Assembly: GCA_003149935.1 (NCBI GenBank)
Contig: QAMH01000009.1
Location: forward strand, 2,774-66,773
From: Coriobacteriia bacterium
GTDB lineage: Bacteria; Actinomycetota; Coriobacteriia; Coriobacteriales; QAMH01
Direction of reading: 5' to 3'
Length of the DNA: 64,000 bases
Position numbers and translations under genes: made by a program. The first letter of the stretch is position 1. Each line of letters begins with the position of its first letter. Positions 3 to 25,351 of this stretch are shown one piece after another. Below the pieces are notes generated by a model, which was not told the DNA's origin, searched no databases, and saw nothing but the letters and a program-made list of their open reading frames with translations.

Positions 3-764
3 TACGACCACGACGGTTCGGCGAAGAGGCCGACCGTCACCGTGAAGTGCGGCGGCAAGACCCTCGCAGCGGGCACTGACTACGACGCCGTCTGGCCCTC
101 CGACGTCACAAACGTGGGCAAGAAGGAGGTCACCGTCACCGGCAAGGGCAACTACGCCGGCACGCTGAAGGCGAGCTACGAGATCGTCGCCGCCCCCAAG
201 CCGACACCAGACCCAACGCCCATACCCAAACCGAACCCCACGCCTACGCCCGACCCCGATCCCACCCCCACGCCGAATCCTGATCCGGAACCAACGCCGA
301 CCCCGGAGCCGAAACCCGATCCGGTTCCCACGCCAGAGCCGCAGCCCGAGCCGACGCCCACCAATGCCATGTTCCGCCTGTATAACCCAAACTCCGGCGA
401 GCACTTCTACAGCTCGTCGACCGTCGAATGCGACCACCTGGTCTCGCTGGGTTGGCAAGATGAGGGCACGGGGTGGATCGCTCCGGCATCTGGCAACGCG
501 GTCTACCGCCTGTACAACCCATATGCCGGCGAGCATCACTACACCCTGTCAGCCGCCGAGCGCGACATGTTGGTTTCGGTGGGCTGGAACGACGAGGGCA
601 TCGGCTGGTACTCTGATTCTGCACAAAGCATTCCCTTATACCGCATCTACAACCCCAACGAGTATGCCAACAACCATCACTACACCACGAGCGCTGCAGA
701 ACGTGACTTTCTACTGTCTATAGGCTGGCAAGACGAAGGCGTGAGTTGGTATGGAGTGGGGTAG
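3..764 (+). CDS. Cell-surface/cell-wall associated protein, C-terminal portion (5' end lies upstream of the window)
   Basis: Frame 3 is open from the window edge. It starts with an Ig-like surface-protein repeat (YDHDGSAKRPTVTVKCGGKTLAAGTDYDAVWPSDVTNVGKKEVTVTGKGNYAGT). A ~55-aa Pro/Thr/Asp/Glu linker follows (PKPTPDPTPIPKPNPTPTP...). Then come three tandem ~45-aa repeats Y(R)LYNPxxGEHxYT...E...L...GW.DEG.GW (DUF5648-like). Stop at 762-764. Confidence 0.7.
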   Translation, partial: YDHDGSAKRPTVTVKCGGKTLAAGTDYDAVWPSDVTNVGKKEVTVTGKGNYAGTLKASYEIVAAPKPTPDPTPIPKPNPTPTPDPDPTPTPNPDPEPTPTPEPKPDPVPTPEPQPEPTPTNAMFRLYNPNSGEHFYSSSTVECDHLVSLGWQDEGTGWIAPASGNAVYRLYNPYAGEHHYTLSAAERDMLVSVGWNDEGIGWYSDSAQSIPLYRIYNPNEYANNHHYTTSAAERDFLLSIGWQDEGVSWYGVG

Positions 765-848
765 TAGTTATCCATCAAGATGGAAACGGAGGTATAGAGC
801 CATAAAACTTATTGATCAGGCGAAACTCTTAAAACAAAGGAAGTGGCT

Positions 849-1004
849 ATGGTAAGAAAAACGAGAGGCGATTGCAGAGTTGGTACTTTCGAAGAAAAAC
901 ATGGCTTGCCCTCTGGAACAATTCGAAACGACAACGGACGTAAAACACGCAGCGATAAAAGAATAGACACTATTAGAAAAGAAAGAAGCAAGGGTAAAAG
1001 ATAA
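849..1004 (+). CDS. Candidate small basic protein (51 aa, MVRKTRGDCRVGTFEEKHGLPSGTIRNDNGRKTRSDKRIDTIRKERSKGKR)
   Basis: Below the ORF-track size cutoff. ATG at 849 is preceded by AAGGAAG at 7 nt spacing, and a GC hairpin follows 13 nt after the stop. It competes with the antisense 60-aa ORF 809-991, which has no obvious RBS. No homology could be checked. Confidence 0.3.
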   Translation: MVRKTRGDCRVGTFEEKHGLPSGTIRNDNGRKTRSDKRIDTIRKERSKGKR

Positions 1005-1017
1005 TCAAGTTTGACAA

Positions 1018-1041
1018 GGGGAGGGGCATCTACCCCTCCCC
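1018..1041. terminator. Perfect 9-bp GC hairpin (GGGGAGGGG-catcta-CCCCTCCCC) between convergent genes
   Basis: Read directly from the sequence. It overlaps the stop codon (1030-1032) of the minus-strand 215-aa gene and follows the small plus-strand ORF. There is no strong U-tract on the plus strand and a moderate T-rich tail on the minus strand. Confidence 0.4.
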
Positions 1042-1677
1042 CGCCTCCAGCTTAGATGTTTGGCGACATTCAAATAAACATTTAGCTGACCGTTCTTCGT
1101 GTTCGTTTTCACTGACAAAGCACGCCATGCCTCCATATGCAATGGCACCTTTATCAATCGTCCTATCACATTCAGGATGCTCCTCAAGGAAAGATTGGAC
1201 CGCACTTTCAACATACGAAACAAAGCGTGTGAGATTTAGGGTAAGGTGCCGCCCTTCCTTCTCTTTATTCTCTTTGTCCTTCGTGCTGTATACCCCATAG
1301 CCGACAACCAGGGGATTCTCGAATGAGAAAACATGGAATCGGACATTGTGATAGTGAGTGAGCTTCCCAGCATCCAATGCTAATGAACCATTATGGAGTA
1401 CAGCATTTCTAATTTGATAAATGTCATTACTGCCAATGCTGTTGCATTCATCATGATAAGACGGGTCGTTTTTAATGATGGGCATCAGATAGTCGTCAGT
1501 CCATCCCATGTACTTTTCAGCATTCGTACGGCAATTACCATCAAGAGAAGAAGCGCACACATCGGGGAGAATAAGTGCGTTGTTTAGTGCTGATATATAC
1601 AATCTTGCGTCCATCGCCGCCACCATTTCAGTGCAATAATCACTGGGTTTCATGCCAATCACTTTCCACGCAGGCAT
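1030..1677 (-). CDS. Hypothetical protein with HEPN-like Rx4H motif (QIRNAVLHNG)
   Basis: 215-aa ORF in an AT-richer island. ATG 1677 is preceded by GGAGAGGGGG. The gene is divergent from the recombinase. Functional assignment rests only on the RNxxxH motif and the defence-island context. Confidence 0.6.
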   Translation of the reverse strand: MPAWKVIGMKPSDYCTEMVAAMDARLYISALNNALILPDVCASSLDGNCRTNAEKYMGWTDDYLMPIIKNDPSYHDECNSIGSNDIYQIRNAVLHNGSLALDAGKLTHYHNVRFHVFSFENPLVVGYGVYSTKDKENKEKEGRHLTLNLTRFVSYVESAVQSFLEEHPECDRTIDKGAIAYGGMACFVSENEHEERSAKCLFECRQTSKLEAGEG

Positions 1678-1753
1678 GTATACCCCCTCTCCGCTAAGCC
1701 CAAACAGCTGTCATATTCATTCTCTTCTGGCAGAGGCGTTGAAAGGAACGAAC

Positions 1754-2716
1754 GTGACAGATTTAATGATAGAGGACATCTTACAGCGCATGAGCAGGGT
1801 CCTCTCATGCACGCAGCTTAAGGTTTTGAAAGCGGAGCTTCAGGCAATGCAGAGCTCTCATGTTGCGCATAAGAACGATAGCGATTTGCTGGAACTCTTT
1901 CTCACCGCTAAAGAAGTTGAAGGATGCTCGCCGAAAACGCTTGTGTATTACGAAAAAACAATTAGCAAAATGAATGCTGCGCTCGCCAAGCCTTATACGC
2001 AACTAACCACAGATGATCTTCGCAAATATCTCAGCGACTACGAAAATGAACGAGGCTCAAGCAAGGTCACCATAGACAATATCCGACGCATCTTTTCAAG
2101 TTTTTTCTCTTGGCTCGAAGACGAAGACTACATTGTGAAAAGCCCCGCACGACGTATTCATCATGTAAAAACACCTGCTCTTGTCAAAGAAACATTAAGC
2201 GATGAAGATCTAGAGACGCTACGCGATGGATGCAGATGCGATCGTGATCTTGCCATTATCGACATGCTCGCCTCTACAGGAATGCGCGTTGGCGAACTCG
2301 TTCGCCTCGACAGGGCAGATCTCGATTTACACGAACGAGAATGTCTGGTTCTTGGAAAGGGAAATAAGCAACGTCCGGTCTACTTCGATGCGCGAACGAA
2401 ACTGCATTTGAAGAACTATCTCGCCTCACGAACTGATGATAATCCTGCTCTCTTCGTAAGTTTGAGTGGAAGACGCGAGCGTCTGAGCATTAGCGGAGTC
2501 GAACTGCGCTTGAGGCAACTAGGAAGAAGACTGCTCCCCCAACGCGTTCACCCTCACAAATTCCGGCGAACACTTGCCACGAATGCAATAGACAAGGGAA
2601 TGCCTGTCGAACAAGTGCAAAAGCTCCTCGGTCATGCAAGAATAGACACGACCATGCATTATGCAATGGTAAACCAGAATAACGTTAAAGCTTCGCATAG
2701 AAGGTATTTGGAATGA
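1754..2716 (+). CDS. Tyrosine recombinase / phage-type integrase (XerC/D-like)
   Basis: The C-terminal catalytic region is typical of the family (RVGELVRLDRADLDL..., HKFRRTLATNAIDKGMPVEQVQKLLGHARIDTTMHYAMV). The start is uncertain: GTG 1754 has AAGGAA 6 nt upstream, and alternatives are ATG 1766 or ATG 1652. Stop TGA overlaps the hsdS ATG (ATGA). Confidence 0.85.
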   Translation: MTDLMIEDILQRMSRVLSCTQLKVLKAELQAMQSSHVAHKNDSDLLELFLTAKEVEGCSPKTLVYYEKTISKMNAALAKPYTQLTTDDLRKYLSDYENERGSSKVTIDNIRRIFSSFFSWLEDEDYIVKSPARRIHHVKTPALVKETLSDEDLETLRDGCRCDRDLAIIDMLASTGMRVGELVRLDRADLDLHERECLVLGKGNKQRPVYFDARTKLHLKNYLASRTDDNPALFVSLSGRRERLSISGVELRLRQLGRRLLPQRVHPHKFRRTLATNAIDKGMPVEQVQKLLGHARIDTTMHYAMVNQNNVKASHRRYLE

Positions 2717-3951
2717 AACTTGGCGAACTGTGTATAAAGATTGGCAGCGGCGCCACCCCGCGAGGTGGCAAAAAATCCTATAGGTCATTCGGCATTCCTA
2801 TTATAAGGAGCCAAAATATTCACGATTGGACATTCAGTAGTGACGGCTTGGCTTTTTTGGACGAAACGCAGGCGAATTCTTTGTCAAATGCTGAAGTAAT
2901 GCCGGGCGATATCCTTCTCAACATAACTGGCGATTCTGTCGCGCGGTCTTGCATGGTTCCACAACACTATACCCCGGCGCGCGTGAATCAACATGTCTTG
3001 ATAATCCGGCCTAACGAAATGCTTAATCCGATATACCTTCTTTGTTTTCTGCAACATATCAAGTCATATCTGCTCAACCTCGCCTCCTCCGGTGCAACGC
3101 GTAACGCGTTGACAAAAGGCATGATTGAGAATTTAGACATCGAGCTTCCCTCATTTGAAACTCAGCAGGCTATCGCCTCTGTAATCGAGAAGTTTCTAGA
3201 TAAGATTGCCATTAACAATCAGATAAATGATTATTTGTACGAGTGTTGCACGGCAAAGATGCAAGAGATAGTCGCTGAGTCGACAGGAACTATAACCGTT
3301 GATGATTGCTGCGATGCGATTTACAGCGGCGGGACACCGTCAACAAAAAAGCCAGCATATTGGGACGGCGGTCTTCCATGGCTGTCGTCAGGCGAAACTA
3401 GATCGAGATTCATTATTGATACAGAGAAGACCATTACAGAACTTGGTGTAAATGAATCGTCTACTAAACTGGCAAAGGCTGGCGATGTTGTGATGGCCTC
3501 GGCTGGCCAGGGTTTTACCAGAGGCCAAACGTCGATGCTGTTCTTCGATACGTACGTAAATCAGTCGGTCGTTGTTATGCGGCCAAAACAATTCTATGGC
3601 GCATATTTGCTGCTTATGTTGGCTTCGCAGTACGACTCGTTGAGGGCATGGTCAGATTCGACCTCAACTAGGGGAAGCATGTCGGGTAAACTCCTTCGGC
3701 AGTTCGATATTCCATCGATTGATTCAGACCGGGCGAGAGAGCTTACAGATTCCGCAGCACCGATATTTGCCTTGATTGAAAACAACTTGCGCGAATCGAA
3801 GTCCTTAGGGCAAACCAGAGACGCATTATTACCCAAGCTCATGTCTGGCGAAATCGACGTTTCGAAAGTCGACGTCACGCAGCTAAATAATCATTTTCCC
3901 TGCATCGCCGATGCCCTTGGCGTCAGCGTAAAATCACTTGTCGAGTTCTAG
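2713..3951 (+). CDS. hsdS: Type I restriction-modification specificity subunit HsdS (intact, two TRDs)
   Basis: Two target-recognition domains, each containing ...VNQ(H/S)V(L/V)(I/V)(I/M)RP.... They are separated by a central conserved region (FETQQAIASVIEKFLDKIAINNQINDYL). A C-terminal conserved helix is present (RDALLPKLMSGEIDV). Translationally coupled to the recombinase. Confidence 0.9.
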   Translation: MKLGELCIKIGSGATPRGGKKSYRSFGIPIIRSQNIHDWTFSSDGLAFLDETQANSLSNAEVMPGDILLNITGDSVARSCMVPQHYTPARVNQHVLIIRPNEMLNPIYLLCFLQHIKSYLLNLASSGATRNALTKGMIENLDIELPSFETQQAIASVIEKFLDKIAINNQINDYLYECCTAKMQEIVAESTGTITVDDCCDAIYSGGTPSTKKPAYWDGGLPWLSSGETRSRFIIDTEKTITELGVNESSTKLAKAGDVVMASAGQGFTRGQTSMLFFDTYVNQSVVVMRPKQFYGAYLLLMLASQYDSLRAWSDSTSTRGSMSGKLLRQFDIPSIDSDRARELTDSAAPIFALIENNLRESKSLGQTRDALLPKLMSGEIDVSKVDVTQLNNHFPCIADALGVSVKSLVEF

Positions 3952-5330
3952 TCAGGCGTAGTCATCTTTCCCTCTGACACCATCCGCTGCGCGAAATCGC
4001 GCGTCCTCTTCTCCACCGCGCAATCCTCTTCCTCGCTTGACCAACGAGCTTCGGGAGGGTCGGCGAAAGTGCATGCATAATGCTCCTCGACCCATGCGGA
4101 AAAGCGCTCAATCTGCTCTTTTTCGTCCAATAATCCAGGACAGTCCACTTGAGAACCACCATGCGTCATACGCTCCCATTGCAACCGCAATGCGTCAATC
4201 CACTCATCGATCCTCTGCTCAATCTCCGACGCGCCACCATCCGAAAGCCATGACTCGAGGCGCCCCTCGACCCAAGCTTCGGTTATATGTCGCGCAGTCT
4301 CAAGACCGGGGCCATCCACGGCATAGAACTCATCGAGATGTAAGTAACGCTCGAGTCTCTCGTCAAGGGCCACTTCCTCCAGAAGTTCGAATACCGCTTG
4401 AGCGATCTCAACGAATTCCGTGCTCTGTTCCGGCGTCAGCTTCCCATCTGACATATGGGGACGATATGAAAATTCCGCAACAGCCGCTCGTAGCACCTTC
4501 GCTGTCTCGTGTACTGGTTCTAGCGACACACCCCCGCAGGCATTCCAATACAAGACCGCGAGAACGTCCTCCATGCATTTGAGGGCACTTGATGCCCATG
4601 CAAGACGAAAGGCCTCGGCGAGGGACTCGCACGCTTCGGCATCAAAAAGGCCGTCTGCGTTCTCCCCATTTTCTGTCATTTCGGCAAATGTAAAGTGGAA
4701 TGCAAGCATCTGTCCCACAGTGGGCCATCCAAATGGTTTGCTCCACGCATCGCAGAAGCGGGCGATATGAGATTTGACTAGCTCCCACGGCGCATCGGCT
4801 GGTACCTGGACAAGGCCCTCCAGCGTGTCTTGGAGCTCAGCATTGATTTTCTCGATATCGCGATCGGTATGGCTACGAGACCAGCGAATCCACTGTCTCA
4901 GATTCTTGTCCCTCTCGTAAGCATCAATGAGTCTGTCAGGACCCTCAATGCCAACGAGCTCGTCCATCAGCGATTCAGGACCCACAACTTCGAGGGCCGA
5001 GCTCAGTTCTATCTTCCTTTGGATGTGGGCATAGTCTTCCTTGAGCTCGTTTGTGCGCATTGCCACGAGCGAAGCACGTTCCGTCTCGGGAGCAGCAAGA
5101 ACTTCCTTGATTCGGTCAAGACTAAAGCCCAACTTGCGATATAGGAGGATCCCCTGGGCCCTACGAACGTCATCCATAGTGTAAAGCTTGCGATTGTTCG
5201 CAATCCCTTCGCCCGAGCGCCGTGCGACCAGAACGCCCTCCTTATCCCAGTTCTTCAGTTGAGCGGCAGTGATTCCGGTAAGTTCGTGTACCTGCGCCAC
5301 CGTAAGCAGTTTGCCATTGTCTTCGTCCAT
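3948..5330 (-). CDS. MerR-family transcriptional regulator with long C-terminal domain of unknown function
   Basis: N-terminal MerR HTH (LTVAQVHELTGITAAQLKNWDKEGVLVARRS...RKLYTMDDVRRAQGILLYRKLGFSLDRIKEVL). 460 aa. The stop overlaps the hsdS stop by 4 nt (convergent). Confidence 0.8.
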   Translation of the reverse strand: MDEDNGKLLTVAQVHELTGITAAQLKNWDKEGVLVARRSGEGIANNRKLYTMDDVRRAQGILLYRKLGFSLDRIKEVLAAPETERASLVAMRTNELKEDYAHIQRKIELSSALEVVGPESLMDELVGIEGPDRLIDAYERDKNLRQWIRWSRSHTDRDIEKINAELQDTLEGLVQVPADAPWELVKSHIARFCDAWSKPFGWPTVGQMLAFHFTFAEMTENGENADGLFDAEACESLAEAFRLAWASSALKCMEDVLAVLYWNACGGVSLEPVHETAKVLRAAVAEFSYRPHMSDGKLTPEQSTEFVEIAQAVFELLEEVALDERLERYLHLDEFYAVDGPGLETARHITEAWVEGRLESWLSDGGASEIEQRIDEWIDALRLQWERMTHGGSQVDCPGLLDEKEQIERFSAWVEEHYACTFADPPEARWSSEEEDCAVEKRTRDFAQRMVSEGKMTTPD

Positions 5331-5404
5331 GCTTCACCTCCTCGCAGGGCACTTTAAACCCAGACACTATATCCAGGTCAAGGTGAAAACACGATTGGAT
5401 GGAA

Positions 5405-5525
5405 AGATTTCTCGACTTCACTCGAAATGATAAAGGGGAGGCACAGGCCTCCCCTTTGATGGTGGGATTTCTCGACTTCGCTCGAAATGACAGAAGAATC
5501 GCTCGGCTTCGGTCGAAATGACAAG
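5405..5525. repeat. Three copies (two full, one partial) of the dispersed GATTTCTCGACT..GCTCGAAATGACA element
   Basis: Copies at 5405-5432, 5465-5493 and 5500-5525 were read directly. The same element occurs at 12150, 33638-33799, 38591 and 56758. Confidence 0.7.
5432..5457 (-). terminator. Rho-independent terminator of the infC-rpmI-rplT operon
   Basis: Perfect 11-bp stem AAAGGGGAGGC/GCCTCCCCTTT with a 4-nt loop, 75 nt downstream of the rplT stop. On the minus strand it is followed by UUUAUCAUUU. Confidence 0.6.
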
Positions 5526-5531
5526 CAGCGC

Positions 5532-5888
5532 TTATGCAGCAGCCTTCTGGGCAATCTTGCACAGCTCGGCGAAACCCTGCGGGTCATTGACGGCCATATC
5601 GGCAAGCACCTTGCGGTCGAGCTCGATGCCAGCCGTCTTGAGGCCATGCATGAAGACCGAATAGGACAGGCCGTTGATGCGAGCAGCCGCGTTGATGCGG
5701 GTGATCCAGAGACGGCGAATCTCGCGCTTCTTGTTGCGACGGTCGCGATAGGCATACTGCAGCGAATGCTGGACCTGCTCTTTAGCCGCACGATACTGAC
5801 GGGACTTAGCACCGTAGTAACCCTTTGCGCGTTTGAATACGGTACGACGCTTCTTCTTGGCGTTAACTGCGCGCTTGACACGTGCCAT
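5532..5888 (-). CDS. rplT: 50S ribosomal protein L20
   Basis: [39 protein letters not shown]... is canonical L20. ATG 5888 is preferred over the in-frame TTG at 5897. Confidence 0.95.
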
Positions 5889-5936
5889 GTTTATCAACTC
5901 CTACTAACAACTGAAACGGATACGGGCTTGCGCGCT

Positions 5937-6134
5937 TTACGCCTTGCCCAGATTCTTCTTGACGACCTTCACATCGGCCTCGGCGACGACCGTCTCGTGA
6001 CGGAAGTTACGCTTACGCTTCTGGGACTTCTTGGTCATGATGTGGCTCTTGAAAGCCTTGCCGCGCATGATCTTGCCCGACCCCGTGGTGCGGAAGCGCT
6101 TGGCAGTGCCCTTGTGGGTCTTCATCTTAGGCAT
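5937..6134 (-). CDS. rpmI: 50S ribosomal protein L35
   Basis: [32 protein letters not shown]... is canonical L35. Confidence 0.95.
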
Positions 6135-6138
6135 GGTG

Positions 6139-6693
6139 CTACTCCTTGTCTTCGTTTTCCTTGCCGGAATTCTTGCGTGCGTCCTTGGGAAGCGGCGCCA
6201 CCATCATGTGCATGTTGCGCCCTTCCATCTTTGGCTGCTGTTCTACGACGGCGAGGTCCTTGAGGTCGTCGGCAAGCCTCTCGAGAATGGTCAGCCCCTG
6301 CTCGGGGTGGGCCATCTCGCGACCGCGGAACATGATGGTGATCTTGACCTTGTTGCCCTTGCCGAGGAAGCGAAGCACGTGACCCTTCTTGGTCTCGTAG
6401 TCGCCCGTATCGATCTTGGGGCGGAACTTCATCTCCTTGACCTCGATCTTGGTCTGGTTCTTGCGCGCCTTCTTGGCCTTGACCGCCTGCTCGTACTTGT
6501 ACTTGCCGTAATCCATAACGCGGCAAACGGGCGGATCGGCATTGGGAGCGACCTCTACCAGATCGAGACCCTGGTCTTCGGCAAAGCGTTGTGCCGCATC
6601 GTTGGCCATCTCGTACTTGGTGCCATCGACACCGATGACGAGGAGCTGCGGCGCATGAATCTCACCGTTGATCCGTGTGTCCTGAGCTGCTAT
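6139..6693 (-). CDS. infC: Translation initiation factor IF-3 (probable non-canonical AUA start)
   Basis: ...[63 protein letters not shown]... is canonical IF-3. The track start (GTG 6702) abuts the AGGAGG SD (6703-6708). The in-frame ATA at 6693 lies 9 nt from the SD. Confidence 0.9.
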
Positions 6694-6707
6694 GACAAAC
6701 ACCTCCT

Positions 6708-6743
6708 AATAAAAAACCTGCCGAGCTGCATTCAGCCGACAGG
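6708..6743 (-). promoter_or_regulatory. Terminator-like hairpin plus U-tract immediately upstream of the infC SD (L20-leader-type attenuator candidate)
   Basis: The minus-strand RNA CCUGUCGGCUGAAUGCAGCUCGGCAGG is followed by UUUUUUAUU, then AGGAGG. No room remains for a promoter between the hairpin and the SD, so infC must be transcribed through it. Confidence 0.45.
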
Positions 6744-6893
6744 CACACACAAAGACCCCCGAAGAGCGAATTGTAAGTGACCAGACAACTGAGCGCTTGC
6801 TCGTCGAAAGGTGGAAGGTAGCTTGCGCACCTTCACTTCGTAGATACGGACGCATAGTTTACACGTGCCCACGGGCACATGCAAGAAGTATTT

Positions 6894-8024
6894 CTAGCGT
6901 AGGTCGACGCTCAGCGTGCGGATGACGCTGTTATCACCCACCGTAACGCCAGCCGTGTGATCGTACGTCTCGGTCACCTTCCAGGTGCCGGGAACGCCCT
7001 CGATGTTGGTGGGGCCGGTGAACTCGGCCACCTCCTGGGCGCTCGTGTCGCGCGAGAGCACCGCCTGGGGGTTTTCGACGATAGTGAGCTGTGCGGACTC
7101 GACGGCGGCAGGATCAAGGCCGATGCCCGCGAGAATCGAGGAGGCGACCACCTTGGAGGCGATGAGCTCGTCGAACTTCGCATCGGCGACGCCAAAGGCA
7201 TCGAGGTCGAATGATGCGAAGATGTAATCGATGTCGCCCGCCGCATTGAGACCGAAGGTGATGCTCGCAAGCGTCTCGCCGTTGGGGCCGACAAGCCATC
7301 CATTGCGCGTCCTCACGACATTGGGCAGCGTCGCATCCGAGGCAGCCGTCGCCTCGGCATCGAGAGCAATCGAGTTGCCGCTTGCCTCGACAGCGGCCTC
7401 GGGCGTCATGCCGAAGTAGGTGATGAGATCGGGGATACGCGCAGCATCGATTGCCTGGAATTGCGCGGCGTTTGTACCCGCCGTCGAGGTTTGCAGAACA
7501 TCGGAGTCCGGCTGCTTAACGCCCGGCGGTGTGCTGTTGCGCCAGATGAACAGGCCGATGACGGCGATAAGGACAAGCAGGATGATGATGAAGAAGACGA
7601 GCAGGTTGCGCAGACGGCGTCTGCTACGCATCGCGCGTTCGGCAGAAAACTCGTCATCGTCCTCGACATATTCGACCGTTTCCTGCTCGGTAATGTTGAT
7701 GGACTCGGAAAGCTCGTCAAGATCGGCGCTCTCAGTGAGACGGTCCCCCTTGCTGCGAGCCGCGACCACGTCGTCTACGTTGACGACGGCATCGGAAGAC
7801 ATATCCCCCGGATCGAAGTCATCGGCATCGGCGGCAGCTGCAGCGCTTATGCCATAGAGGCTATCGGACTTGATGTCATCGAGCATGGACTCGGCGGCCT
7901 CGCCGAAATCCACCGTGATCTCTCCCTGCGGAGTTTCCTCGGCAGGGCGACCGTCGTTAAAGTCCTCCTCCGCGAAGAGGTGGACCTCGACCTCGTTTTG
8001 CTCGTCGTTCTCGCGCTTATCCAT
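6894..8024 (-). CDS. Single-pass membrane protein, acidic N-terminal region, unknown extracytoplasmic domain
   Basis: 376-aa ORF with one TM segment (LLVFFIIILLVLIAVIGLFIW). No recognisable catalytic motifs. Confidence 0.6.
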   Translation of the reverse strand: MDKRENDEQNEVEVHLFAEEDFNDGRPAEETPQGEITVDFGEAAESMLDDIKSDSLYGISAAAAADADDFDPGDMSSDAVVNVDDVVAARSKGDRLTESADLDELSESINITEQETVEYVEDDDEFSAERAMRSRRRLRNLLVFFIIILLVLIAVIGLFIWRNSTPPGVKQPDSDVLQTSTAGTNAAQFQAIDAARIPDLITYFGMTPEAAVEASGNSIALDAEATAASDATLPNVVRTRNGWLVGPNGETLASITFGLNAAGDIDYIFASFDLDAFGVADAKFDELIASKVVASSILAGIGLDPAAVESAQLTIVENPQAVLSRDTSAQEVAEFTGPTNIEGVPGTWKVTETYDHTAGVTVGDNSVIRTLSVDLR

Positions 8025-8032
8025 ATGCGTCC

Positions 8033-8308
8033 CTATACGAAGTGAACCCAGCTATTAACAATATACAGTATTGCGACAATTACGACGACGACTGCGACGA
8101 CAATCAACGCCTTGTGTCCAGCTCCCATGGGCGGCGTCGATGCCAGCCCGTGGAACTCCTCTTCCTGCTCGGCGCTCATGTCGCCTTGCTCGGAAACGGG
8201 CTGTTCTGGCACTGCAGCCTCAGGCTCTGGTGCGACGGTCTGCGTCACGGTTTGCCGTGCCTGCTGTGCGCGACGCTCGACGTCTTCGATATGGCTGAGC
8301 TTGCTCAT
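8033..8308 (-). CDS. Small tail-anchored membrane protein
   Basis: 91-aa ORF with a C-terminal TM (ALIVVAVVVVIVAILYIV). Tightly spaced between the GT2 gene and the 376-aa gene. Confidence 0.5.
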   Translation of the reverse strand: MSKLSHIEDVERRAQQARQTVTQTVAPEPEAAVPEQPVSEQGDMSAEQEEEFHGLASTPPMGAGHKALIVVAVVVVIVAILYIVNSWVHFV

Positions 8309-8336
8309 CGTGCCTCCTCGCCTCGCAAAGAGCCGA

Positions 8337-9812
8337 TTATCCCTTGCTCACGACGTCGGCAACCGAGCGCACGACATTATGCGTGATCGGCTTCCACTCG
8401 ACCTTCTTGAAGACGGCAATGAGGGCGATGGGGACGTAGGTGAGCATGAAGATCGGGAAGGTGAACAGATACTTGATCTTATCGGAATTCTTCGCGTGGA
8501 TGTGATTCCACTCGGTGATCGTCGTAAGCGTGCCAAACACGAGCATGACGACCGCGAAGCTCAGGAAGCAGCCGGCAAGGGAGAGCACCGAGGTAACGAT
8601 GGTCGCGCGTGCCTCGGCATAGGCGAGCACGGTCGAAACCTGGCTGATGTTGAAGGAGCTCAGCGGGTCGCCCTCGAAGACGGAGCCACTCATCATGCCC
8701 GTGGCCATCGAGAACCAATTGGGGTCGCTCGCCACGACACCAGCGCCCCCCGAGGTACTCGCGGCAACCGTTTGCACCGATGCCGCAATGCCTGCCATCT
8801 GCACGATGCCGGTGAGGCAGAAGACGAGGTTGACGGCGACGCCGGCCAAGGTGAGCAGCATGGCCGGCGCAATGGTCATGAACATGTCGTAGCAGGCGAA
8901 ACGGCCCTGCTTGCCACGGAAAATGCCGTTGAAGAGGAAGGAGCCGTACTTGAGTAGCACCTGGTAGAAGCCCTTGGCCCAACGCATGCGCTGACGCCAG
9001 GAATCCTTCATCGTCGTGGGCTGCTCGTCGTAGACGTAGGCATCGGCGCAGTAGCCGATGCGGATGCCATGCGCGATGCAATCCGTCGAGAACTCGATGT
9101 CCTCGGTGAGCAGATGATGAATCCATCCGCCATTGGATTCGAGGATATCGGCGCTGATCATGAAGCCCGTGCCGCTAATGGCGCACGAGCTACCCATCAT
9201 GTAGCGGGCATTGGAGAGGAACTTGGCCTCGCGCAAGAACCACAGGGCACTGCCAGCGGAGATCCAGTTGGAGTCGTAGTTCTTCGAGTTGCGATAGCAG
9301 GTGAGCACCTGGTAGCCGCGATTCACGCCGCGGTTCATCGCCGCGATGAATCCGGGATCGAGCACGTTGTCGGCATCGAAGACGAAGTAGGCGTCATAAT
9401 CCGTACGCCCCGAACAATCGCCGTAGAGCACGCGGATGCGATTGAGCGCGAAGTCGAGCGCATGGCTCTTGCCGACGACCAGGCGGTCGTTGCGTACGAG
9501 CACCTCGGCGCCAGCCTCCTCGGCTACCTGCGCCGTGTTGTCGGTGCAGTTGTCGGCAATGACGAAGATGTCGATGAGCTCTTCGGGGTAGTCCTGGTTC
9601 TTGATGCTGCGCACGAGCTCGCCGATAACGGCCTCCTCGTTGCGACCAGCAATCATCACGGCAAACTTGTGCAGCGGCTCGTCTTGCACGGGCGTGATCT
9701 TGCGTCGATGGTCCTTTACCAAGACAATGACGGCATAGACGGCCTGATACATGTAGCAAAGGCTGAATACGAAGAACAGAAACAGGTTAAAGGTGTTGAC
9801 GAATGTCGCCAT
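8337..9812 (-). CDS. Membrane-embedded family 2 glycosyltransferase (processive, PgaC/cellulose-synthase-like)
   Basis: FAVMIAGRNEEAVIGELVRSIKNQDYP...IFVIADNCTDNT, FDADNV, and the QxxRW motif (WRQRMRWAKGF), with flanking TM segments. The start is either ATG 9812 (MATFVN...) or the upstream ATG 9911. Confidence 0.85.
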   Translation of the reverse strand: MATFVNTFNLFLFFVFSLCYMYQAVYAVIVLVKDHRRKITPVQDEPLHKFAVMIAGRNEEAVIGELVRSIKNQDYPEELIDIFVIADNCTDNTAQVAEEAGAEVLVRNDRLVVGKSHALDFALNRIRVLYGDCSGRTDYDAYFVFDADNVLDPGFIAAMNRGVNRGYQVLTCYRNSKNYDSNWISAGSALWFLREAKFLSNARYMMGSSCAISGTGFMISADILESNGGWIHHLLTEDIEFSTDCIAHGIRIGYCADAYVYDEQPTTMKDSWRQRMRWAKGFYQVLLKYGSFLFNGIFRGKQGRFACYDMFMTIAPAMLLTLAGVAVNLVFCLTGIVQMAGIAASVQTVAASTSGGAGVVASDPNWFSMATGMMSGSVFEGDPLSSFNISQVSTVLAYAEARATIVTSVLSLAGCFLSFAVVMLVFGTLTTITEWNHIHAKNSDKIKYLFTFPIFMLTYVPIALIAVFKKVEWKPITHNVVRSVADVVSKG

Positions 9813-9982
9813 ATTCCCGCTGCGGTACCCCTCCAGGTATTGTCTGCAGATTCGTTGTTGCATTGTAATGCAAGCTGTTAGCAAGCGCCAATCGCTCCAC
9901 AGTTTGTGCACGGGATGTTAAGGGAGCATTCAGGTGAGCAAATTGTGAACTTTCTCTCGCACCCGAGTTGCGCTTCGCACTC

Positions 9983-10376
9983 GAGTTGCAGCTCGCACCG
10001 GCAAGCTGCAACGCTCCGACGGTCGCTTCCCGACAGCCCGCTTCGCGGTCTTTACGGCGCGCTCCCTTGAACCTCCGCTTTACAGCTTGCCGGTGCGCTC
10101 AGACAGTCCTCGCAAGACCGCATCGAGCTCAGCGCAACTCTGCCCGAGATGTCCGCAATTCGCTCGCCTTCATTTTTGTAAGTTGTAGCTCGCATTGGCA
10201 AGCTGCATCGCTCCGACGGTCGCTTCCCGACAGCCCGCTTCGCGGTCTTTACGGCGCGCTCCCTTGGACCTCCGCTTTGCAGCTTGCCAGCGCGCTCAGA
10301 TAGTTCCCTTAGAGCCATATCGAGCTCAGCGCGGCTATGCTCGAGATGTCCGCATTTGCTCACCTTCATTTTTGTG
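9983..10376. repeat. Tandem duplication, 2 x 197 bp, each unit with a 13-15 bp stem enclosing ~65 nt
   Basis: Unit 1 spans 9983-10179 and unit 2 spans 10180-10376. The period was established from GGCAAGCTGCA at 10000 and 10197. The end of unit 2 overlaps the last codons of rsmA. Confidence 0.8.
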
Positions 10377-11259
10377 AATTATGTTCTAAGAACGCGTGGG
10401 CCATTTGCAAATAGACATCGGGCGCGAGGGTTTCGCCACGCACCGTGGGGGCGATGTCGCATTCGGCGAGCAGACGGTCGACGACATCCTTGGGATAGCG
10501 GCTGCTCATGGAGTTGCGGATGGTCTTGCGTCGCTGGGCGAAGGCCGCATCGGCCAGAGTGCTCGCAACTTCGAGTAGCTCGGGGGCCGGTGCATCCTCA
10601 TTGCGCTCGATGCGAATGACGGCACTCTCGACGTGCGGCGCGGGCATGAAGCAACCTGGGGGCACCTGGAAGCGATCGGTTACGTGCGCACGCAGGCGCA
10701 GCTTGACCGTGTAGGCGCCATAGTTCTTGGTGCCCACCTCGGCGCACATGCGATCGGCGACCTCGCTTTGCACCATGACCGTCATGGCATCGAGAAACTC
10801 GAAGCGCTCGAGCCAATCGAGCACCACCGTGGCGGCAATACCGTAGGGCAGGTTGGAGACGAGTTGGTGCGGTAAGGGCGCATCAAGGGCCGTGGCGGCT
10901 AGCTCGACCTCGTCACGCGTCAGCTTCAATGCGTCCTTCTCGATAAGGACAAGACGATGGGAAAGGTCGGCGGTCGTCTGCGCGAGCACATCGAGAAGAT
11001 CACGGTCTCGTTCGACAGCGATGAGCTTGGCCCGTTCGAGCAGTGCGATGGTGAGCGTGCCGATACCCGGTCCAATCTCGAGCAGCGTGGGCAGTTCTTC
11101 GTCCGGCTGCGGGTCATCGAGATGCGCGAGGTGCAGGATATTGCCGATGACGTTATCATCCACCAGAAAGTTCTGGCCAAGCGCATGCTTGGCGCTCAGG
11201 CCGAACTCCTGCAAAACGCCCCTGGTCGCCCGGGGATTCGCCAGCGACGAGTACGACAT
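10366..11259 (-). CDS. rsmA: 16S rRNA (adenine1518/1519-N6)-dimethyltransferase
   Basis: HALGQNFLVDDNVIGNIL...LEIGPGIGTLTIALLE...VSNLPYGIA is canonical KsgA/RsmA. Confidence 0.95.
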   Translation of the reverse strand: MSYSSLANPRATRGVLQEFGLSAKHALGQNFLVDDNVIGNILHLAHLDDPQPDEELPTLLEIGPGIGTLTIALLERAKLIAVERDRDLLDVLAQTTADLSHRLVLIEKDALKLTRDEVELAATALDAPLPHQLVSNLPYGIAATVVLDWLERFEFLDAMTVMVQSEVADRMCAEVGTKNYGAYTVKLRLRAHVTDRFQVPPGCFMPAPHVESAVIRIERNEDAPAPELLEVASTLADAAFAQRRKTIRNSMSSRYPKDVVDRLLAECDIAPTVRGETLAPDVYLQMAHAFLEHNSQK

Positions 11260-12344
11260 CAGCGACTCCTCGGTACGTCGGCCCGCACGGCACCGGCCAC
11301 CTGGACGGCATAGGACAAGTCAAAGGCGTCGCCGATAAGGCGATGGATACGCTGGGGTTCGATACGCAAATCGGCGCAGTTGAGGGCCGAGGTGCATATG
11401 GTTTCGAGGGGCTCGGTGCCAAAGGGGTCTCCGCCATCGCCGATGACGACGAGGTGGGCCGGCCGCTTGCGCGGAATCCAATTCCTGAGCACGTACTTGC
11501 GCGCCCAGTACATCTGGCAACGGTCAAGGGCGGCCTTGAGCCAACCGGAAGGTCCCGCAAAGTAGACAGGCGCAATGACGACGAGCGCCGCGCAGGAGTT
11601 CATGTGCCGCGAAAGCACGTTCCACGAATCGCCCTTGATACAACACTCACCGGTCTGGCTGCACACGCCACAACCCGTGCAAGCGGCAATCGGATACTTC
11701 GAAATCTCGAACAGCGTGACGGCAAAACCTGATAGGCGCAGATATTCCCTGAGCTTGCGACCGAAGAGGGCCGACTTACCATCGCGATGCGGAGAGCCCA
11801 CGAGAATGAGCACCTCGGGCGGCCTGGAGGCGTCGTCGGGCTCTGAGTCGGGTTCGGGCTCTGAGTCGGGGCGAACGGGGACGCCCTCGGTATCTACGCC
11901 GGTGCTGCCCGCATCAGAGGTATGCACGACAGGTTCGTCGTTGAGCTGGGTAAGGGGCTTCGCGTTGACCTGATTCAGGAAGCTCTGGGGTGACTCTCCG
12001 AAGAGCTCCTCGAAGCTTTCCTCGTCCAGGGCACCTTCAGGAGGCGTTTCGTCATCATCAACGTTTCCGGTGCCGGTGACATCTCCGGCAAGCGAAACCG
12101 ATATGCCACCATCGACGTTATATGTGGATCGGGCCGTGTCCTCGGTGGCGAGATTTCTCGACTCCGCTTCGCTTCGCTCGAAATGACAGTGGGGCGCTTC
12201 GCTGCGGTCGGAATGGGAATCAGATGCTTCGCTGCGGTCGGAATGAGAATCGGGGGCGTCCCCCGATTCACCCGGTTTGGGGGCACTCAGCTTCTCGAGG
12301 TCCTTCTCGGTTGGGAGCTTCTGTCGACGCGACTTCTTTGCCAT
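11259..12344 (-). CDS. Iron-sulfur flavoprotein-like (flavodoxin-fold FMN reductase) with ~170-aa disordered N-terminal extension
   Basis: The C-terminal domain VLILVGSPHRDGKS... carries the compact Cys motif CTGCGVCSQTGEC (CX2CX2CX5C). ATG 12344 is preceded by GGAGGGGG. There is no internal ATG before the flavodoxin domain. Confidence 0.75.
   Translation of the reverse strand: MAKKSRRQKLPTEKDLEKLSAPKPGESGDAPDSHSDRSEASDSHSDRSEAPHCHFERSEAESRNLATEDTARSTYNVDGGISVSLAGDVTGTGNVDDDETPPEGALDEESFEELFGESPQSFLNQVNAKPLTQLNDEPVVHTSDAGSTGVDTEGVPVRPDSEPEPDSEPDDASRPPEVLILVGSPHRDGKSALFGRKLREYLRLSGFAVTLFEISKYPIAACTGCGVCSQTGECCIKGDSWNVLSRHMNSCAALVVIAPVYFAGPSGWLKAALDRCQMYWARKYVLRNWIPRKRPAHLVVIGDGGDPFGTEPLETICTSALNCADLRIEPQRIHRLIGDAFDLSYAVQVAGAVRADVPRSR
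12150..12253. repeat. Dispersed element copy plus two 30-bp tandem derivative units, located inside the flavoprotein ORF
   Basis: 12150-12189 is GAGATTTCTCGACTCCGCTTCGCTTCGCTCGAAATGACAG. 12196-12223 and 12226-12253 are GCTTCGCTGCGGTCGGAATG(G/A)GAATC... The translation is SDSHSDRSEA x2 followed by PHCHFERSEAESRNL. Confidence 0.75.
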
Positions 12345-12353
12345 ACCCCCTCC

Positions 12354-13421
12354 TCAAGCACGCTTGGCATCGAGCAAATCGTGAGCGTTCTGGAAAACGC
12401 GCTCGGCGAACTGCGCCTCGGTGAGCCCCCGTTGCAGGACCGCGTAGTCTGGCATCGACGTCACCGGCGCCACGGCGCCCTTGTCGATGTCGCTTTGGCG
12501 CGGCTGCAGAAGCCCGAAGGCGCGCTCAGCCCCCGCATATCCAAAGCAATCGAGCAGCTCGCGCAAGGTGAAGACGGTCTGACTCGGCGTGCAGACCGTG
12601 CCGCGCAAGGGCTCGGGAGCCATGTAGGGAGCATCGGTTTCGGTAAGAAGACGGTCCAGTGGCACGTCGAGGGCAGCCGCACGCGTCTCCCAGCTCTTCT
12701 TGAAAGTGAGCGGCCCGCCAAAGGCAACGTAGCAGCCGAGTTCGAGAAACGGGGCCAGCGTTTGGGCGTCAAGGTTGAAGCAGTGCACGATGCAGCCAGC
12801 TTTGGGGACGCCCGTCTCGTGCAAGATGGCGAGCGCGTCATCATGGGCCTCGCGCAGATGCAGGCTTACTGGAAGCCCGTGCTCCTGTGCCGTTTGCAGT
12901 TGCGCGGCAAAGACCTCGCGCTGCACGTCACGCGGGCTGAAATCGTAATGGTAATCGAGCCCCACCTCGCCCAGGCAGCTCGTCTCGGGACGGGCAAGCA
13001 GGGCGGCGAGCTCGTCACGCGCATCATCAAAGTACTTGGCGTTGTGCGGATGCACGCCACAGGCAAAGCGAACGCGTGGCATGACGGCCTGCGCCATCCC
13101 CCACTCCTCGAGCAATGCCGCGGCATCATCAAACCACGAGCCGAGCCCGTCGTAGGTATCACGCGCCGTCCGTCGCGTCACGTCTCCGTCGTCGCCGTCA
13201 AGCTCGGGTCTTGTCGGGTCGGTCATGCAGCAGATGAAGTCGACGCCATGGGCCGCTGCCTGCGCAAGCGTGAGCCCCGGTTCGGGAAACATGCCCAGGT
13301 GACAATGCGTGTCGGCAACAAGCGTACCGTACGGCAATTCGGGAGCAGACTTGACCTTGCCCTTCGAGTTGCGAAAGAGCGCGTCACGTTCGTCGAAGTG
13401 TTTGAAGTCGTTGTAGCCCAT
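12354..13421 (-). CDS. tatD: TatD-family metal-dependent hydrolase/DNase
   Basis: The motifs ADTHCHL, ...VHPHNA..., CLGEVGLDYHYD and ...SLHLREAHDD... are typical of TatD. The ATG overlaps the metG stop. Confidence 0.9.
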   Translation of the reverse strand: MGYNDFKHFDERDALFRNSKGKVKSAPELPYGTLVADTHCHLGMFPEPGLTLAQAAAHGVDFICCMTDPTRPELDGDDGDVTRRTARDTYDGLGSWFDDAAALLEEWGMAQAVMPRVRFACGVHPHNAKYFDDARDELAALLARPETSCLGEVGLDYHYDFSPRDVQREVFAAQLQTAQEHGLPVSLHLREAHDDALAILHETGVPKAGCIVHCFNLDAQTLAPFLELGCYVAFGGPLTFKKSWETRAAALDVPLDRLLTETDAPYMAPEPLRGTVCTPSQTVFTLRELLDCFGYAGAERAFGLLQPRQSDIDKGAVAPVTSMPDYAVLQRGLTEAQFAERVFQNAHDLLDAKRA

Positions 13422-14965
13422 TACTTCTCGAGACGCGGGAAGAGAGCATCACCCTTGGTGACCTCGTTGCCGGCAGGAAGCCCGCCCCACAGCGCGAGCT
13501 CGGCGGCGTTGTCGACAGCGCACGGGTCTTCCAAGCCCAGGCGCCTCCACAGCTCCGTCGACGTATTGGGCATGAAGGGGGCAAGGAGCAGCGCGGCGAT
13601 GCGGCAGGTCTCCAGTGCGTTGTAGAGCACGAACGCTAGCTCGCCCTGGGTCTCCTCGCTTTTGGCGAGATTCCATGGCGCACTTTCCTCGACGTAGAGG
13701 TTTGCGCGATGCAGAAGCTCCATGACATGAGCGGACGCCCCACCGAAGTCGATGTCGTTCATGCACGCGGCGTAGCGTTCGTAGAGCCCCTCGGCAATCT
13801 CCGAGAGCGGATTTTCCTCCAGACCGAACTCGGCGGGTACCTCGGGCACCTGTCCGTCGAAGTACTTGATGACCATATTGCTCACGCGGCTGAAGAGGTT
13901 GCCGTAGGTGTTGGCCAGGTCGGCGTTGTAAACCTGCGTGATGCGATCGTGACCAATATTGGCATCGGAACCAAAGGTCACGTCACTCAGAAAGTAGTAG
14001 CGATAGGCGTCCACACCGTAGCGCTCGATGAGGTCGCGCGGATAGAGCGCATTGCCCTTCGATTTGCTCATCTTGGAGCCATCGGCCGCCATGAGGAAGC
14101 CGTGCGCGAAGACGTGGCGCGGGCACTCCATGCCGGCGGCCATGAGCATGGCCGGCCAAATCACGCAGTGAAAGCGGATGATGTCCTTGCCGACGAAGTG
14201 GAAGTTCGCCGGCCAGAAGCGCTCGAGCAGCGTGATGTCGTCGCTGCCGTAGCCGAGCGCGGTGAGGTAATTGATGAGGGCGTCGACCCACACGTAGGTG
14301 ACATGCTCGGGGTCGAACGGCAGCGGGATGCCCCAGTCGAACGCCGTGCGGCTCACGGACAGGTCATGCATGCCGCCTTCGATGAAGGAGCGGATCTCGT
14401 TTTCGCGAATCTGCGGGCGGATGAAGTTGGGGTGTTCGTCGTAGTACGCGAGCAACTTGTCGCCAAACTCGGAGAGCTTGAAGAACCAGTTCTCCTCGTG
14501 GATGACCTTGACCTCACGCCCGCAATCGGGGCACTTGCCGTCAACCAGATCGCCCTCGGTGAACTGCGTCTCGCACGGCGTGCAGTAGTAGCCGTCGTAG
14601 GTTCCCTTGTAGAGATAGCCATTGTCATGGAGCTTCTGCATGAAGTCCTGGACGCCCTTAACGTGATGCGGCTGCGTCGTGCGGATGAAGTCGTCGTTGG
14701 TGATGTCGAGCTCGTGCCACAGGTCGGTGAACTGCGTGACCTGGCTGTCGCACCACTCCTGCGGCGTCATGCCGTGCTCGGCGGCCGCCTCGGCGACCTT
14801 CTCGCCATGCTCGTCCATGCCGGTGAGGAAGAAGACGTCGCGCCCGTCCATGCGTGCGAAGCGCGCAGTGGCATCGGCCGCGACGGTGGTGTACGCGGTG
14901 CCGATGTGCGGCTCGCCGTTGACGTAGTAGATGGGTGTGGTGACGTAGAAGCTGTCTTTGGTCAT
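13421..14965 (-). CDS. metG: Methionine--tRNA ligase
   Basis: FYVTTPIYYVNGEPHIGTAYTTV (HIGH region), KMSKSKGN (KMSKS), and a Zn knuckle CTPCE...CPDCG. Confidence 0.97.
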   Translation of the reverse strand: MTKDSFYVTTPIYYVNGEPHIGTAYTTVAADATARFARMDGRDVFFLTGMDEHGEKVAEAAAEHGMTPQEWCDSQVTQFTDLWHELDITNDDFIRTTQPHHVKGVQDFMQKLHDNGYLYKGTYDGYYCTPCETQFTEGDLVDGKCPDCGREVKVIHEENWFFKLSEFGDKLLAYYDEHPNFIRPQIRENEIRSFIEGGMHDLSVSRTAFDWGIPLPFDPEHVTYVWVDALINYLTALGYGSDDITLLERFWPANFHFVGKDIIRFHCVIWPAMLMAAGMECPRHVFAHGFLMAADGSKMSKSKGNALYPRDLIERYGVDAYRYYFLSDVTFGSDANIGHDRITQVYNADLANTYGNLFSRVSNMVIKYFDGQVPEVPAEFGLEENPLSEIAEGLYERYAACMNDIDFGGASAHVMELLHRANLYVEESAPWNLAKSEETQGELAFVLYNALETCRIAALLLAPFMPNTSTELWRRLGLEDPCAVDNAAELALWGGLPAGNEVTKGDALFPRLEK

Positions 14966-15151
14966 GGGATATCGGTCCTCACTCGTACGGGTGTGCTGGA
15001 GGAGATTATAGCGGCTTGCGCAGGGCGCAGGCTGTTTAGATTGAATGCAAAATGCTTAGATGAAACGTGGGCATGTCCGATGAGCTTGGGCATTCAACAC
15101 TCACGGCCTGTCCGCCGCCCGCTAGCGGCCATAGAGGAGCACGATGCATTG

Positions 15152-15928
15152 CTATCTCAATCGGTATTCCCACTTATCGAGCCAGTTGGTTCTGACGCGT
15201 TCAGCTACTCCATTCTCAACAACTAACATGGAGCCATCCCCGACTGGTTGCATGCGACTAGTAAGTGAGAAGGTATCGCACAGCCATATATCATCTCTTT
15301 TTGACCGCAGCTTCATACATGTTTCTACAGGCGTGTGCCCCACAATTTGGTTCACTCGAGATGCAGCGTCCGCCTGCAGATCGCGTTTGTCGGCCCAAAG
15401 CGGCGATGGCAGCTCACAACCTCCCCTTGATGGACCACAAGATGCAAGTGCCCGCCAGTCGTAGTATGACCCATCGAAATACATTTCATTGATTCTTGTC
15501 GCCAAGCTCTCTGTATTGTCAGCTCTTGGCGCGTACTCGTTCCTCCATTCTTCAGTCACCCCCGCATGCGTGATGAGATGCCCATCGCAGGAAATTGCAG
15601 CGCACATTTTAAATTGGCCGAGAAGCTCACGGATACTGTCCATCGCTTCAAGATGGGTACCCGAGCATCCCTCACCAAGCAAATACTCAAAGTCGTGATT
15701 GCCCAATACAAGAATGACCTCGATATCTCTAGTCGCGGCTAACTTAATCCACCGTGCCTGAACATCAAGTGCGTCTATTACGTCTTTTGCCGTCGTATTC
15801 CACTCATCTACGTAATCACCCAGGAAGATGATTCTGCTTGGTTCAAAACATGAGACTACCTCATCCACCAAAGGGAGGACTATCCTTTGTTTGCAGTGCA
15901 TATCACCAACGATAAGAGTTTTTGACAT
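15152..15928 (-). CDS. Calcineurin-like metallophosphoesterase
   Basis: Motifs GDMHC, GDYVDEW, GNHDF, THAG and GHTP occur in canonical order. The gene sits in the AT-richer island. Confidence 0.8.
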   Translation of the reverse strand: MSKTLIVGDMHCKQRIVLPLVDEVVSCFEPSRIIFLGDYVDEWNTTAKDVIDALDVQARWIKLAATRDIEVILVLGNHDFEYLLGEGCSGTHLEAMDSIRELLGQFKMCAAISCDGHLITHAGVTEEWRNEYAPRADNTESLATRINEMYFDGSYYDWRALASCGPSRGGCELPSPLWADKRDLQADAASRVNQIVGHTPVETCMKLRSKRDDIWLCDTFSLTSRMQPVGDGSMLVVENGVAERVRTNWLDKWEYRLR

Positions 15929-15995
15929 GAGGCTCCTCAGGACTACGCGTATTGTATCGACTTCGCGAGCGGCAGCATATCAGCATTGTTATAAG

Positions 15996-25314: not shown

Positions 25315-25351
25315 AAAATGAGACAGTTGCTCAGAGCAACTGTCTCATTTT
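25315..25351 (-). terminator. Rho-independent terminator downstream of gap
   Basis: Perfect 16-bp stem AAAATGAGACAGTTGC / GCAACTGTCTCATTTT with a 5-nt loop, and U-rich on both strands. Confidence 0.7.

Follow-up and report, generated by a model that had tools for sequence, protein, structure and literature searches.

A 64,000-nucleotide stretch of a Coriobacteriia bacterium genome (contig QAMH01000009.1, positions 2,774 to 66,773; hereafter the window) holds, in two islets, the hsdR, hsdM, and hsdS genes of a type I restriction-modification (R-M) system, all recognized by Pfam and PADLOC matches. The only source of specificity is the hsdS gene at 2713-3951, which shares a cotranscribed layout with a tyrosine recombinase gene and lies 14 kb from hsdM, across rplT-rpmI-infC...metG; the hsdM-linked hsdS is dead, and tblastn found no further HsdS-like open reading frame (ORF) in the window. 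We conclude that the hsdS genes of the window very probably belong to a XerA-type shufflon with four sites, which its own site-specific recombination has split. An initial annotation, made from the sequence alone, had offered the fossil of a split shufflon as one possibility, and the comparison with relatives that it suggested bears this out, the two islets being contiguous there.

That annotation had singled out a 17-mer, CAGATAAATGATTATTT, with exact copies at 3220-3236 and 16001-16017 on the same (+) strand, and the match is far beyond chance, as no such pair arose in 100 dinucleotide-preserving shuffles. The shared sequence is indeed a recombination site, but its functional unit is the 12-bp crossover core AAATGATTATTT, which the 17-mer extends by a 5-bp arm (CAGAT), and the related sites in the window number four rather than two (1072-1083, 3225-3236, 3885-3896, and 16006-16017); the 64 kb contain no further 12-mer that matches the core with at most one mismatch. 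The first site (w1, core AAATAAACATTT) is a target-site variant with one mismatch, and has target DNA on its left and, on its right, AGCTGACCGTTCTT, the right flank of site s2 in the related loci L016 and L021 (loci and contigs from our searches carry L numbers). The second (w2, AAATGATTATTT, + strand, equivalent to s3 of the relatives) lies in the central conserved region of hsdS. The third (w3, AAATAATCATTT, − strand) is the inverted partner of w2, and its left flank is the end of a cassette; together these perfect inverted cores bracket the second target recognition domain (TRD), TRD2. The fourth (w4, + strand) corresponds to s1 of the original locus, with the same left flank, TAAGGCAACCAGAT, as s1 of L021. 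The inverted pair at 3225 and 3885, the junction site at 1072, and an IS256 element described below had all been overlooked.

Positions 1084-3896, comprising a gene we call X, the recombinase gene, and hsdS, form a precise insertion of 2,813 bp flanked by cores in direct orientation, with w1 as its left and w3 as its right junction. Homology to the relatives L016, L021, and L022 sets in precisely at 1072 and breaks off precisely at 3896, and both junctions are present in contigs L001 and L002. From the window flanks we predicted an empty site, GTTTGGCGACATTC-AAATnnnnATTT-TCCCTGCATCGCC, and empty sites reading GTTTGGCGACATTC-AAATAAACATTT-TCCCTGCATCGC (with a shorter left flank, GGCGACATTC-AAATAAACATTT-TCCCTGCATCGC) were found in L020, a Coriobacteriia metagenome-assembled genome that was the single locus returned by a genome-contig search with the MerR-like protein, and in L023, a Joint Genome Institute (JGI) metagenome contig found by a 21-nt pattern. 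On one side of the empty site is the terminator hairpin of a DUF5648 gene and on the other the MerR-like gene, with its 3′ end facing the site; the pseudo-site (with short flanks, GGCGACATTC-AAATAAACATTT-TCCCTGCA) lies 52 nt past the MerR-like stop codon and matches the core at 11 of 12 positions. At the variant position the left core keeps the base of the target (AAATAAACATTT) and the right core has that of the shufflon (AAATAATCATTT), which is the outcome expected, judging from the sequence, of a reciprocal exchange within the core. The empty sites of L020 and L023, which the occupied site of the window matches, show the insertion into the pseudo-site, that is, reintegration at a core-bearing site; the enzyme responsible was presumably the shufflon's own recombinase. 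Near this insertion, a stretch of ∼224 nt (780-1003) flanked by ATCAAG is absent from the otherwise collinear L020; it carries a 51-aa, very basic ORF (849-1004).

The neighborhoods of eight recombinase homologues (94% to 68% identity) and of one 177-aa protein from the HsdS cluster were then compared. In all 12 loci that reach hsdM, the recombinase-hsdS(+) pair stands directly beside, and convergent with, hsdS(−)-hsdM-hsdR; 10 of these loci belong to the genus of the window, and in these 10 the locus adjoins metG wherever the contig extends that far. The order and orientation of ksgA, the FMN reductase gene, TatD, and metG are the same in relatives and window, and the core-gene block of the window retains its orientation relative to hsdM. 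The module had been described as inverted relative to hsdMS, which is correct as to orientation; however, the convergent layout is ancestral and owes nothing to the split. In each of about twenty related Coriobacteriia loci, four 12-bp cores lie within one contiguous shufflon, arranged as s1-cassette-s2-X-recombinase-TRD1(+)-s3-cassette-s4-TRD1(−)-hsdM-hsdR. The cores alternate in orientation (s1 and s3 forward, AAATGATTATTT; s2 and s4 reverse, AAATAATCATTT), so that s2 and s4 share an orientation in all relatives and the segment bearing the recombinase is bounded by direct repeats. At most sites the consensus is CAG[A/C]T-core-A[G/T]CTG, an imperfect 22-bp palindrome. Because s4 serves twice, as the C-terminal conserved region of hsdS(+) and as the central conserved region of hsdS(−), one s3-s4 cassette completes either hsdS, depending on its orientation.

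Recombination at these cores can be read directly from pairs of relatives. L004 and L006, from different samples but with the same recombinase, do not differ over 7 kb (100% identity) other than in s1-s2 and s3-s4, which are exactly inverted, and L013 and L014 differ by an exact inversion at s3-s4. In L018, L019, L027, and L028, cassettes are swapped between s1-s2 and s3-s4, and in one of them the recombinase segment is flipped as well. Crossover therefore takes place at the core, and this bacterial group has an active shufflon. With inverted cores, a linked recombinase, and exact inversions in relatives, the initial classification of the system as a recombinase-linked, phase-variable type I system stands.

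Two further features of the relatives' loci were observed. In L003-L008, L012, and L015, the 14 nt to the left of s1 read ATG GGC TCT CAG CT and immediately precede the core; a forward cassette at s1 would be read as MGSQLNDYL followed by the TRD, so s1 may be a third expression site. In L006 the ORF so formed has 401 codons and runs antisense to X. The shufflon of L003-L008 and L012 has a RelB antitoxin gene next to it, at about 7880-8560, and that of L015 has one together with a ParE/YafQ toxin (208-800); the lineage of the window has a metallophosphoesterase gene at that position.

The closest relative with an unsplit locus, L021 (on a 2.05-Mb contig), reads metG-metallophosphoesterase-s1-cassette-s2-X-recombinase-TRD1a-s3-cassette-s4-TRD1c(−)-hsdM-hsdR. 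The now separated pieces of the window (14770-16017, 1072-2170, 2572-3236, and 17789-18788) are 99-100% identical to this contiguous locus; X is identical at 594 of 594 nt, TRD1a is 99.8% identical, and the metallophosphoesterase gene that flanks s1 (15152-15928, − strand) is identical together with its intergenic region (854/854). The core genes on either side share only 82-95% identity with L021. The three separated pieces must therefore have been contiguous very recently. One could instead suppose that the two islets were acquired independently and that the 17-mer is merely a conserved HsdS coding motif (QINDYL); the motif does encode part of the central conserved helix of HsdS, and the cores of distant systems are similar rather than identical (AAATCATCATTT in Lactococcus, AAATGATAATTT in L. 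sakei). Given the empty site, the boundaries exactly at the cores, the 99-100% identity of all pieces to the L021 locus, and the inversion breakpoints of relatives exactly at the 12-mer, we regard an independent origin as hardly credible.

Because the orientation of the module is unchanged, excision between direct cores (s2 × s4 or s1 × s3) followed by reintegration is needed. Two successive inversions were considered and rejected, as they would leave the module in the opposite orientation. Transposition of the module by IS256 was likewise rejected, since no insertion sequence (IS) lies at 1072 or 3896 and no other copy of the element is present in the window. Formally, the same arrangement would result if the 12-kb block, rather than the module, had been excised and reinserted. 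We thus propose that the ancestor of the window was an L021-like contiguous locus with cores in alternating orientation, from which recombination of s2 with s4 (equivalently, s1 with s3) would have released a circle of ∼2.8 kb carrying X, the recombinase gene, TRD1a, and one cassette. Integration of this circle at the AAATAAACATTT pseudo-site would have produced the insertion at 1084-3896. The donor would have kept s1, a cassette, and TRD1c-hsdM-hsdR, and would later have lost its cassette, a site, and the hsdM-linked hsdS to IS256 and a deletion of ∼0.5 kb.

Two metagenome contigs resembling such a circle were recovered. L022, a k141 contig of 2,804 nt, is a perfect circular permutation whose ends abut inside X and which reads X 5′ part-recombinase-TRD1a-s3-cassette(−)-core-X 3′ part; the sequence joining its end to its start also occurs uninterrupted in the window and in L021, it makes exactly one turn (2,141 + 12 + 639 + 12 nt), and its cassette is 100% identical to window positions 16018-16342. 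L017 (2,837 nt, a k=141 assembly from another lineage) has the same content and a 141-nt terminal direct overlap. Both have the structure predicted for the s2 × s4 product and, as assembled sequences, are consistent with an excised circle, which is supportive but not conclusive. Four contigs of about 2.85 kb (L025-L028) that were considered as further loops were rejected, as they are linear unitigs ending inside cassettes. The loops also raise the possibility, which we put forward tentatively, that the unit of X, recombinase, half hsdS, and cassette is a self-mobilizing mini-element of ∼2.7-2.8 kb that regularly leaves as an abundant circle and inserts at any sequence resembling the 12-bp core. 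Were this so, orphan recombinase-hsdS modules would have a general way of arising and of moving within genomes, and they could possibly pass between strains and reprogram resident type I enzymes in trans.

At the locus left behind, w4 is followed by a silent TRD cassette (16018-16342, + strand) of which 108 of 213 codons remain before it is cut by an IS256-family element (16343-17788, − strand). The ORF at 16403-17713 on the − strand, previously taken for an hsdS, encodes the intact 436-aa transposase of this element (331.7 bits against NF033543), whose terminal inverted repeats lie at 16348-16372 and 17759-17783. Beyond it is a 93-codon 5′ remnant of the hsdS that follows hsdM (TRD1c; 17789-18068, − strand), 100% identical to L021. 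The flanks of the element (TTTATAAG and CCTTGCTT) show no 8-bp target duplication and, in L021 and L022, lie ∼0.5 kb apart in opposite orientation, so a deletion accompanied the insertion. Lost with the ∼0.5 kb were the remaining part of the cassette, the core in reverse complement, and conserved region 1 (CR1) with the C-terminal part of TRD1c. These junctions show that the donor locus was destroyed by IS256 and the adjacent deletion. Because the IS junction recurs, 100% identical, in three further assemblies (L031-L033), this lineage has a foothold in several samples, and an assembly accident does not account for the arrangement.

The state of this locus bears on whether the two islets could still exchange TRDs over 12.8 kb, between 3220-3236 and 16001-16017, by inverting or excising the block of essential genes, as the initial annotation had considered. 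The cores are identical and the recombinase is intact, and 3885-3896 and 16006-16017 are in inverted orientation within a 20-nt perfect inverted repeat (3877-3896 / 16006-16025). This repeat was examined as a possible recombinant junction and rejected, as CAGCT plus the core, the consensus found at most sites of the relatives, accounts for 17 of its 20 nt; this also weakens it as a sign of exchange. The cores at 3225 and 16006, by comparison, are direct repeats, so the pair proposed as present-day partners could only excise 12.8 kb including rplT, infC, and metG. The cassette at 16018 is no usable partner either: it ends after 108 codons at IS256 and would give no functional allele. The 428-aa product predicted for inversion between 3885 and 16006 is absent from the protein collection. 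A long-range shufflon that is still active thus seems to us highly improbable.

The surviving hsdS most likely acts in trans with HsdM and HsdR, a reading that rests on gene content. hsdM (18058-19566, − strand; 502 aa) is full length, as is hsdR (19575-22733, − strand; 1052 aa), which has all its domains, and the HsdS of the recombinase-hsdS operon would serve both. Action in trans would be nothing new, because the recombinase-coupled hsdS of the relatives is already a separate operon, convergent with hsdRMS. The gene encodes 412 aa with two TRDs, and consists of TRD1a (2713-3224), a core, a cassette (3237-3884), a second core, and a tail (3897-3951; 55 nt, or 18 codons plus the stop) read from target DNA, which gives the protein 18 residues beyond the ...LLPKLMSGEIDV... 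end usual for HsdS. The invertible cassette is 95% identical to cassettes of L004, L006, and L007. Inversion between 3225-3236 and 3885-3896 would toggle the product between this two-TRD form and a 177-aa, one-TRD form ending in ...QINDYLAA. A 177-aa half HsdS in L021 and L022 differs from the predicted flipped product by 1-2 residues, and 177-aa and 412-aa forms with the same TRD1a both exist. Truncated HsdS half subunits can dimerize and specify a symmetric target, and by analogy the 177-aa form would presumably work as a dimer. The switch has probably shrunk from several specificities to two. The core at 1072 carries one mismatch, which probably makes re-excision harder and keeps the module in place.

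Several observations weigh against our reconstruction. The donor junction (s2-left/s4-right) falls within the IS256-associated deletion, so that the excision cannot be read on this chromosome; the remnant would look no different had a complete resident copy been lost in a larger IS-linked deletion. Mixed shufflon states could also produce closed loops in de Bruijn assemblies, and in L025, L027, and L028 such mixtures do end contigs. In the own lineage of the window no inversion or circle was seen and only the 412-aa form was found, in the few samples that carry the strain; the exact 177-aa product predicted is not in the protein collection. Within the recombinase gene, a patch of 330 nt (2172-2500) is 75-82% identical to L021 and 94.6% identical to the L012-L015 lineage, in a module otherwise 99-100% identical to L021, so that some exchange with another lineage must have taken place.

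Part of this evidence would suit a duplicative or horizontal origin, in which the circle came from a sister chromosome or another strain and the complete resident locus later lost ∼3.4 kb (s2-X-recombinase-TRD1a-s3-cassette-s4) in one IS256-associated deletion. The absence of an IS256 target duplication, the missing donor junction, the mosaic recombinase gene, and the circle-like contigs in other samples are all compatible with it. The step of integration at the pseudo-site is common to both models, but a duplicative or horizontal origin requires one more event, and the identity to L021 of X and of both sides of the right locus (100%) and of TRD1a (99.8%) fits a single locus that was split. 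We therefore consider this origin unlikely and retain the splitting of one shufflon as the preferred explanation.

The recombinase (1754-2716, + strand; 320 aa, GTG start) has Pfam Phage_integrase and N-terminal SAM-like domains and scores 233.4 bits against the NCBIfam XerA model NF040815 (cutoff 220). Aligned to P. abyssi XerA (4a8e), it keeps all of the catalytic residues R178, K205, H268, R271, H294, and Y303. Its family is very large, and among the matches listed the homologues are almost all 317-323 aa long. As the initial annotation had it, the gene is coupled to the intact hsdS by an ATGA overlap, which joins the recombinase stop TGA to the hsdS start ATG, in an AT-richer islet (GC 0.45-0.50 over 1000-4000 versus 0.55-0.64 in the block between the islets). 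A scan of 700-4200 for promoters and terminators gave nothing above shuffled expectation.

Gene X (1030-1677, − strand) has a 199-aa form in the relatives (1081-1677) whose TGA stop sits in the s2 core; because the core variant of the window turns this codon into TGT, the gene runs on for 16 extra codons into target DNA. A near-copy of the 17-mer at the 3′ end of this ORF prompted us to consider it as a silent half hsdS, which was rejected: the near-copy is the insertion junction, the ORF is read in another frame than the QLN motif, and it has no TRD match in Pfam, PADLOC, or NCBIfam. Indeed, gene X as a whole matched nothing in these three collections, and a Foldseek search of its AlphaFold model (predicted local distance difference test, pLDDT, 75) against the PDB returned nothing below E = 0.2. 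The 10 homologues found share many invariant residues, including RNxxLH, which resembles the HEPN Rx4H motif. X is thus a real gene of a small conserved family, with the HEPN-like motif as the sole functional hint. In other lineages, the slot of X is taken by an unrelated HNH-like gene.

The block between the islets (3897-15050, − strand) contains host core genes: MerR-like, rplT, rpmI, infC, ..., ksgA, TatD, and metG, with names taken from the gene table of L001, a contig identical to the window. Several repeats were noted in and beyond it. A 177-nt direct repeat with 87% identity and internal hairpins (9984-10160 / 10181-10357) occupies the intergenic region between a glycosyltransferase gene and ksgA, and clusters of 30-36-nt, TTCTCGACTTCGCTCGAAATGA-like repeats occur at 5395-5530 (between the MerR-like gene and rplT) and at 12141-12254 (at the 5′ end of the FMN reductase ORF). 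At 25317-25349, where the GAPDH and TP_methylase genes adjoin, a perfect palindrome of 32 nt in the intergenic DNA surfaced as a reciprocal match to L021.

A close parallel is the tvr locus of S. pneumoniae (SpnIV, with recombinase TvrR), in which hsdS is shuffled by excision and reintegration via circular intermediates (Kwun et al. 2018, PMC6265443). In both systems the excisable segment contains the recombinase gene, TRD sequence, and small accessory genes, and in tvr, as is proposed for the window, short repeats guide excision of a circle and then its reintegration; tvrAT lies beside tvr much as the RelB and ParE/YafQ pair lies beside the locus of the relative L015. However, tvr reintegrates within its locus, whereas the circle proposed for the window landed 12 kb away and split the system, and the Coriobacteriia system also uses inverted cores for plain inversions. 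Epigenetic invertons of hsdS with a linked tyrosine invertase have been described (Huang et al. 2020, PMC7672463; Atack et al. 2020, PMC7394358) and catalogued widely, including in Actinobacteria (PMC7672463). Such invertons have hsdS adjacent to hsdM/hsdR; in the window these are 14 kb apart, and the hsdM-linked hsdS is cut by IS256.

A like organization is found on two plasmids, pRV500 of Latilactobacillus sakei (L. sakei) and pJM2A of Lactococcus cremoris, in which xerA-hsdS(+) overlaps a convergent hsdS(−)-hsdM. Their recombinases are 61-63% identical to that of the window, and they have 2-4 cores of the form AAAT-N-AT-N-ATTT in conserved regions: four sites in pJM2A (L029, 5278-8196; cores AAATCATCATTT/AAATGATGATTT) and two in pRV500 (L030, 7328-7979; cores AAATGATAATTT/AAATTATCATTT). 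Unlike the window, these loci are contiguous, the central bases of the core differ, no X gene is present, and an ectopic module has not been reported for them. In M. pulmonis, according to the account cited in PMC7672463, one recombinase, HvsR, acts on the distant hsd and vsa loci. The likeness, so far as that account goes, is a recombinase far from some of its target sites, with specificity genes apart from other hsd genes; the distant loci of M. pulmonis are described there as complete invertible units that work independently, whereas the distant site of the window, at 16006, is a relic without partner sites, recombination with which would be lethal or pointless. What sets the window apart is the ectopic landing at a pseudo-site that split the system, which extends tvr and the epigenetic invertons and is not a new kind of system.

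The window thus provides a natural, base-pair-resolved record of an hsdS-shufflon recombinase acting beyond local inversion, in an excision followed by integration at a secondary site whose match is limited to the 12-bp core. The crossover core of a widespread family of XerA-type hsdS invertases, found in gut Coriobacteriia and on plasmids of Lactobacillales, is thereby defined, and the case illustrates how a recombinase-hsdS module can come to be an orphan far from hsdMR. In practice, annotation and methylome work should allow for a type I system whose specificity gene lies at another place in the genome yet still switches.

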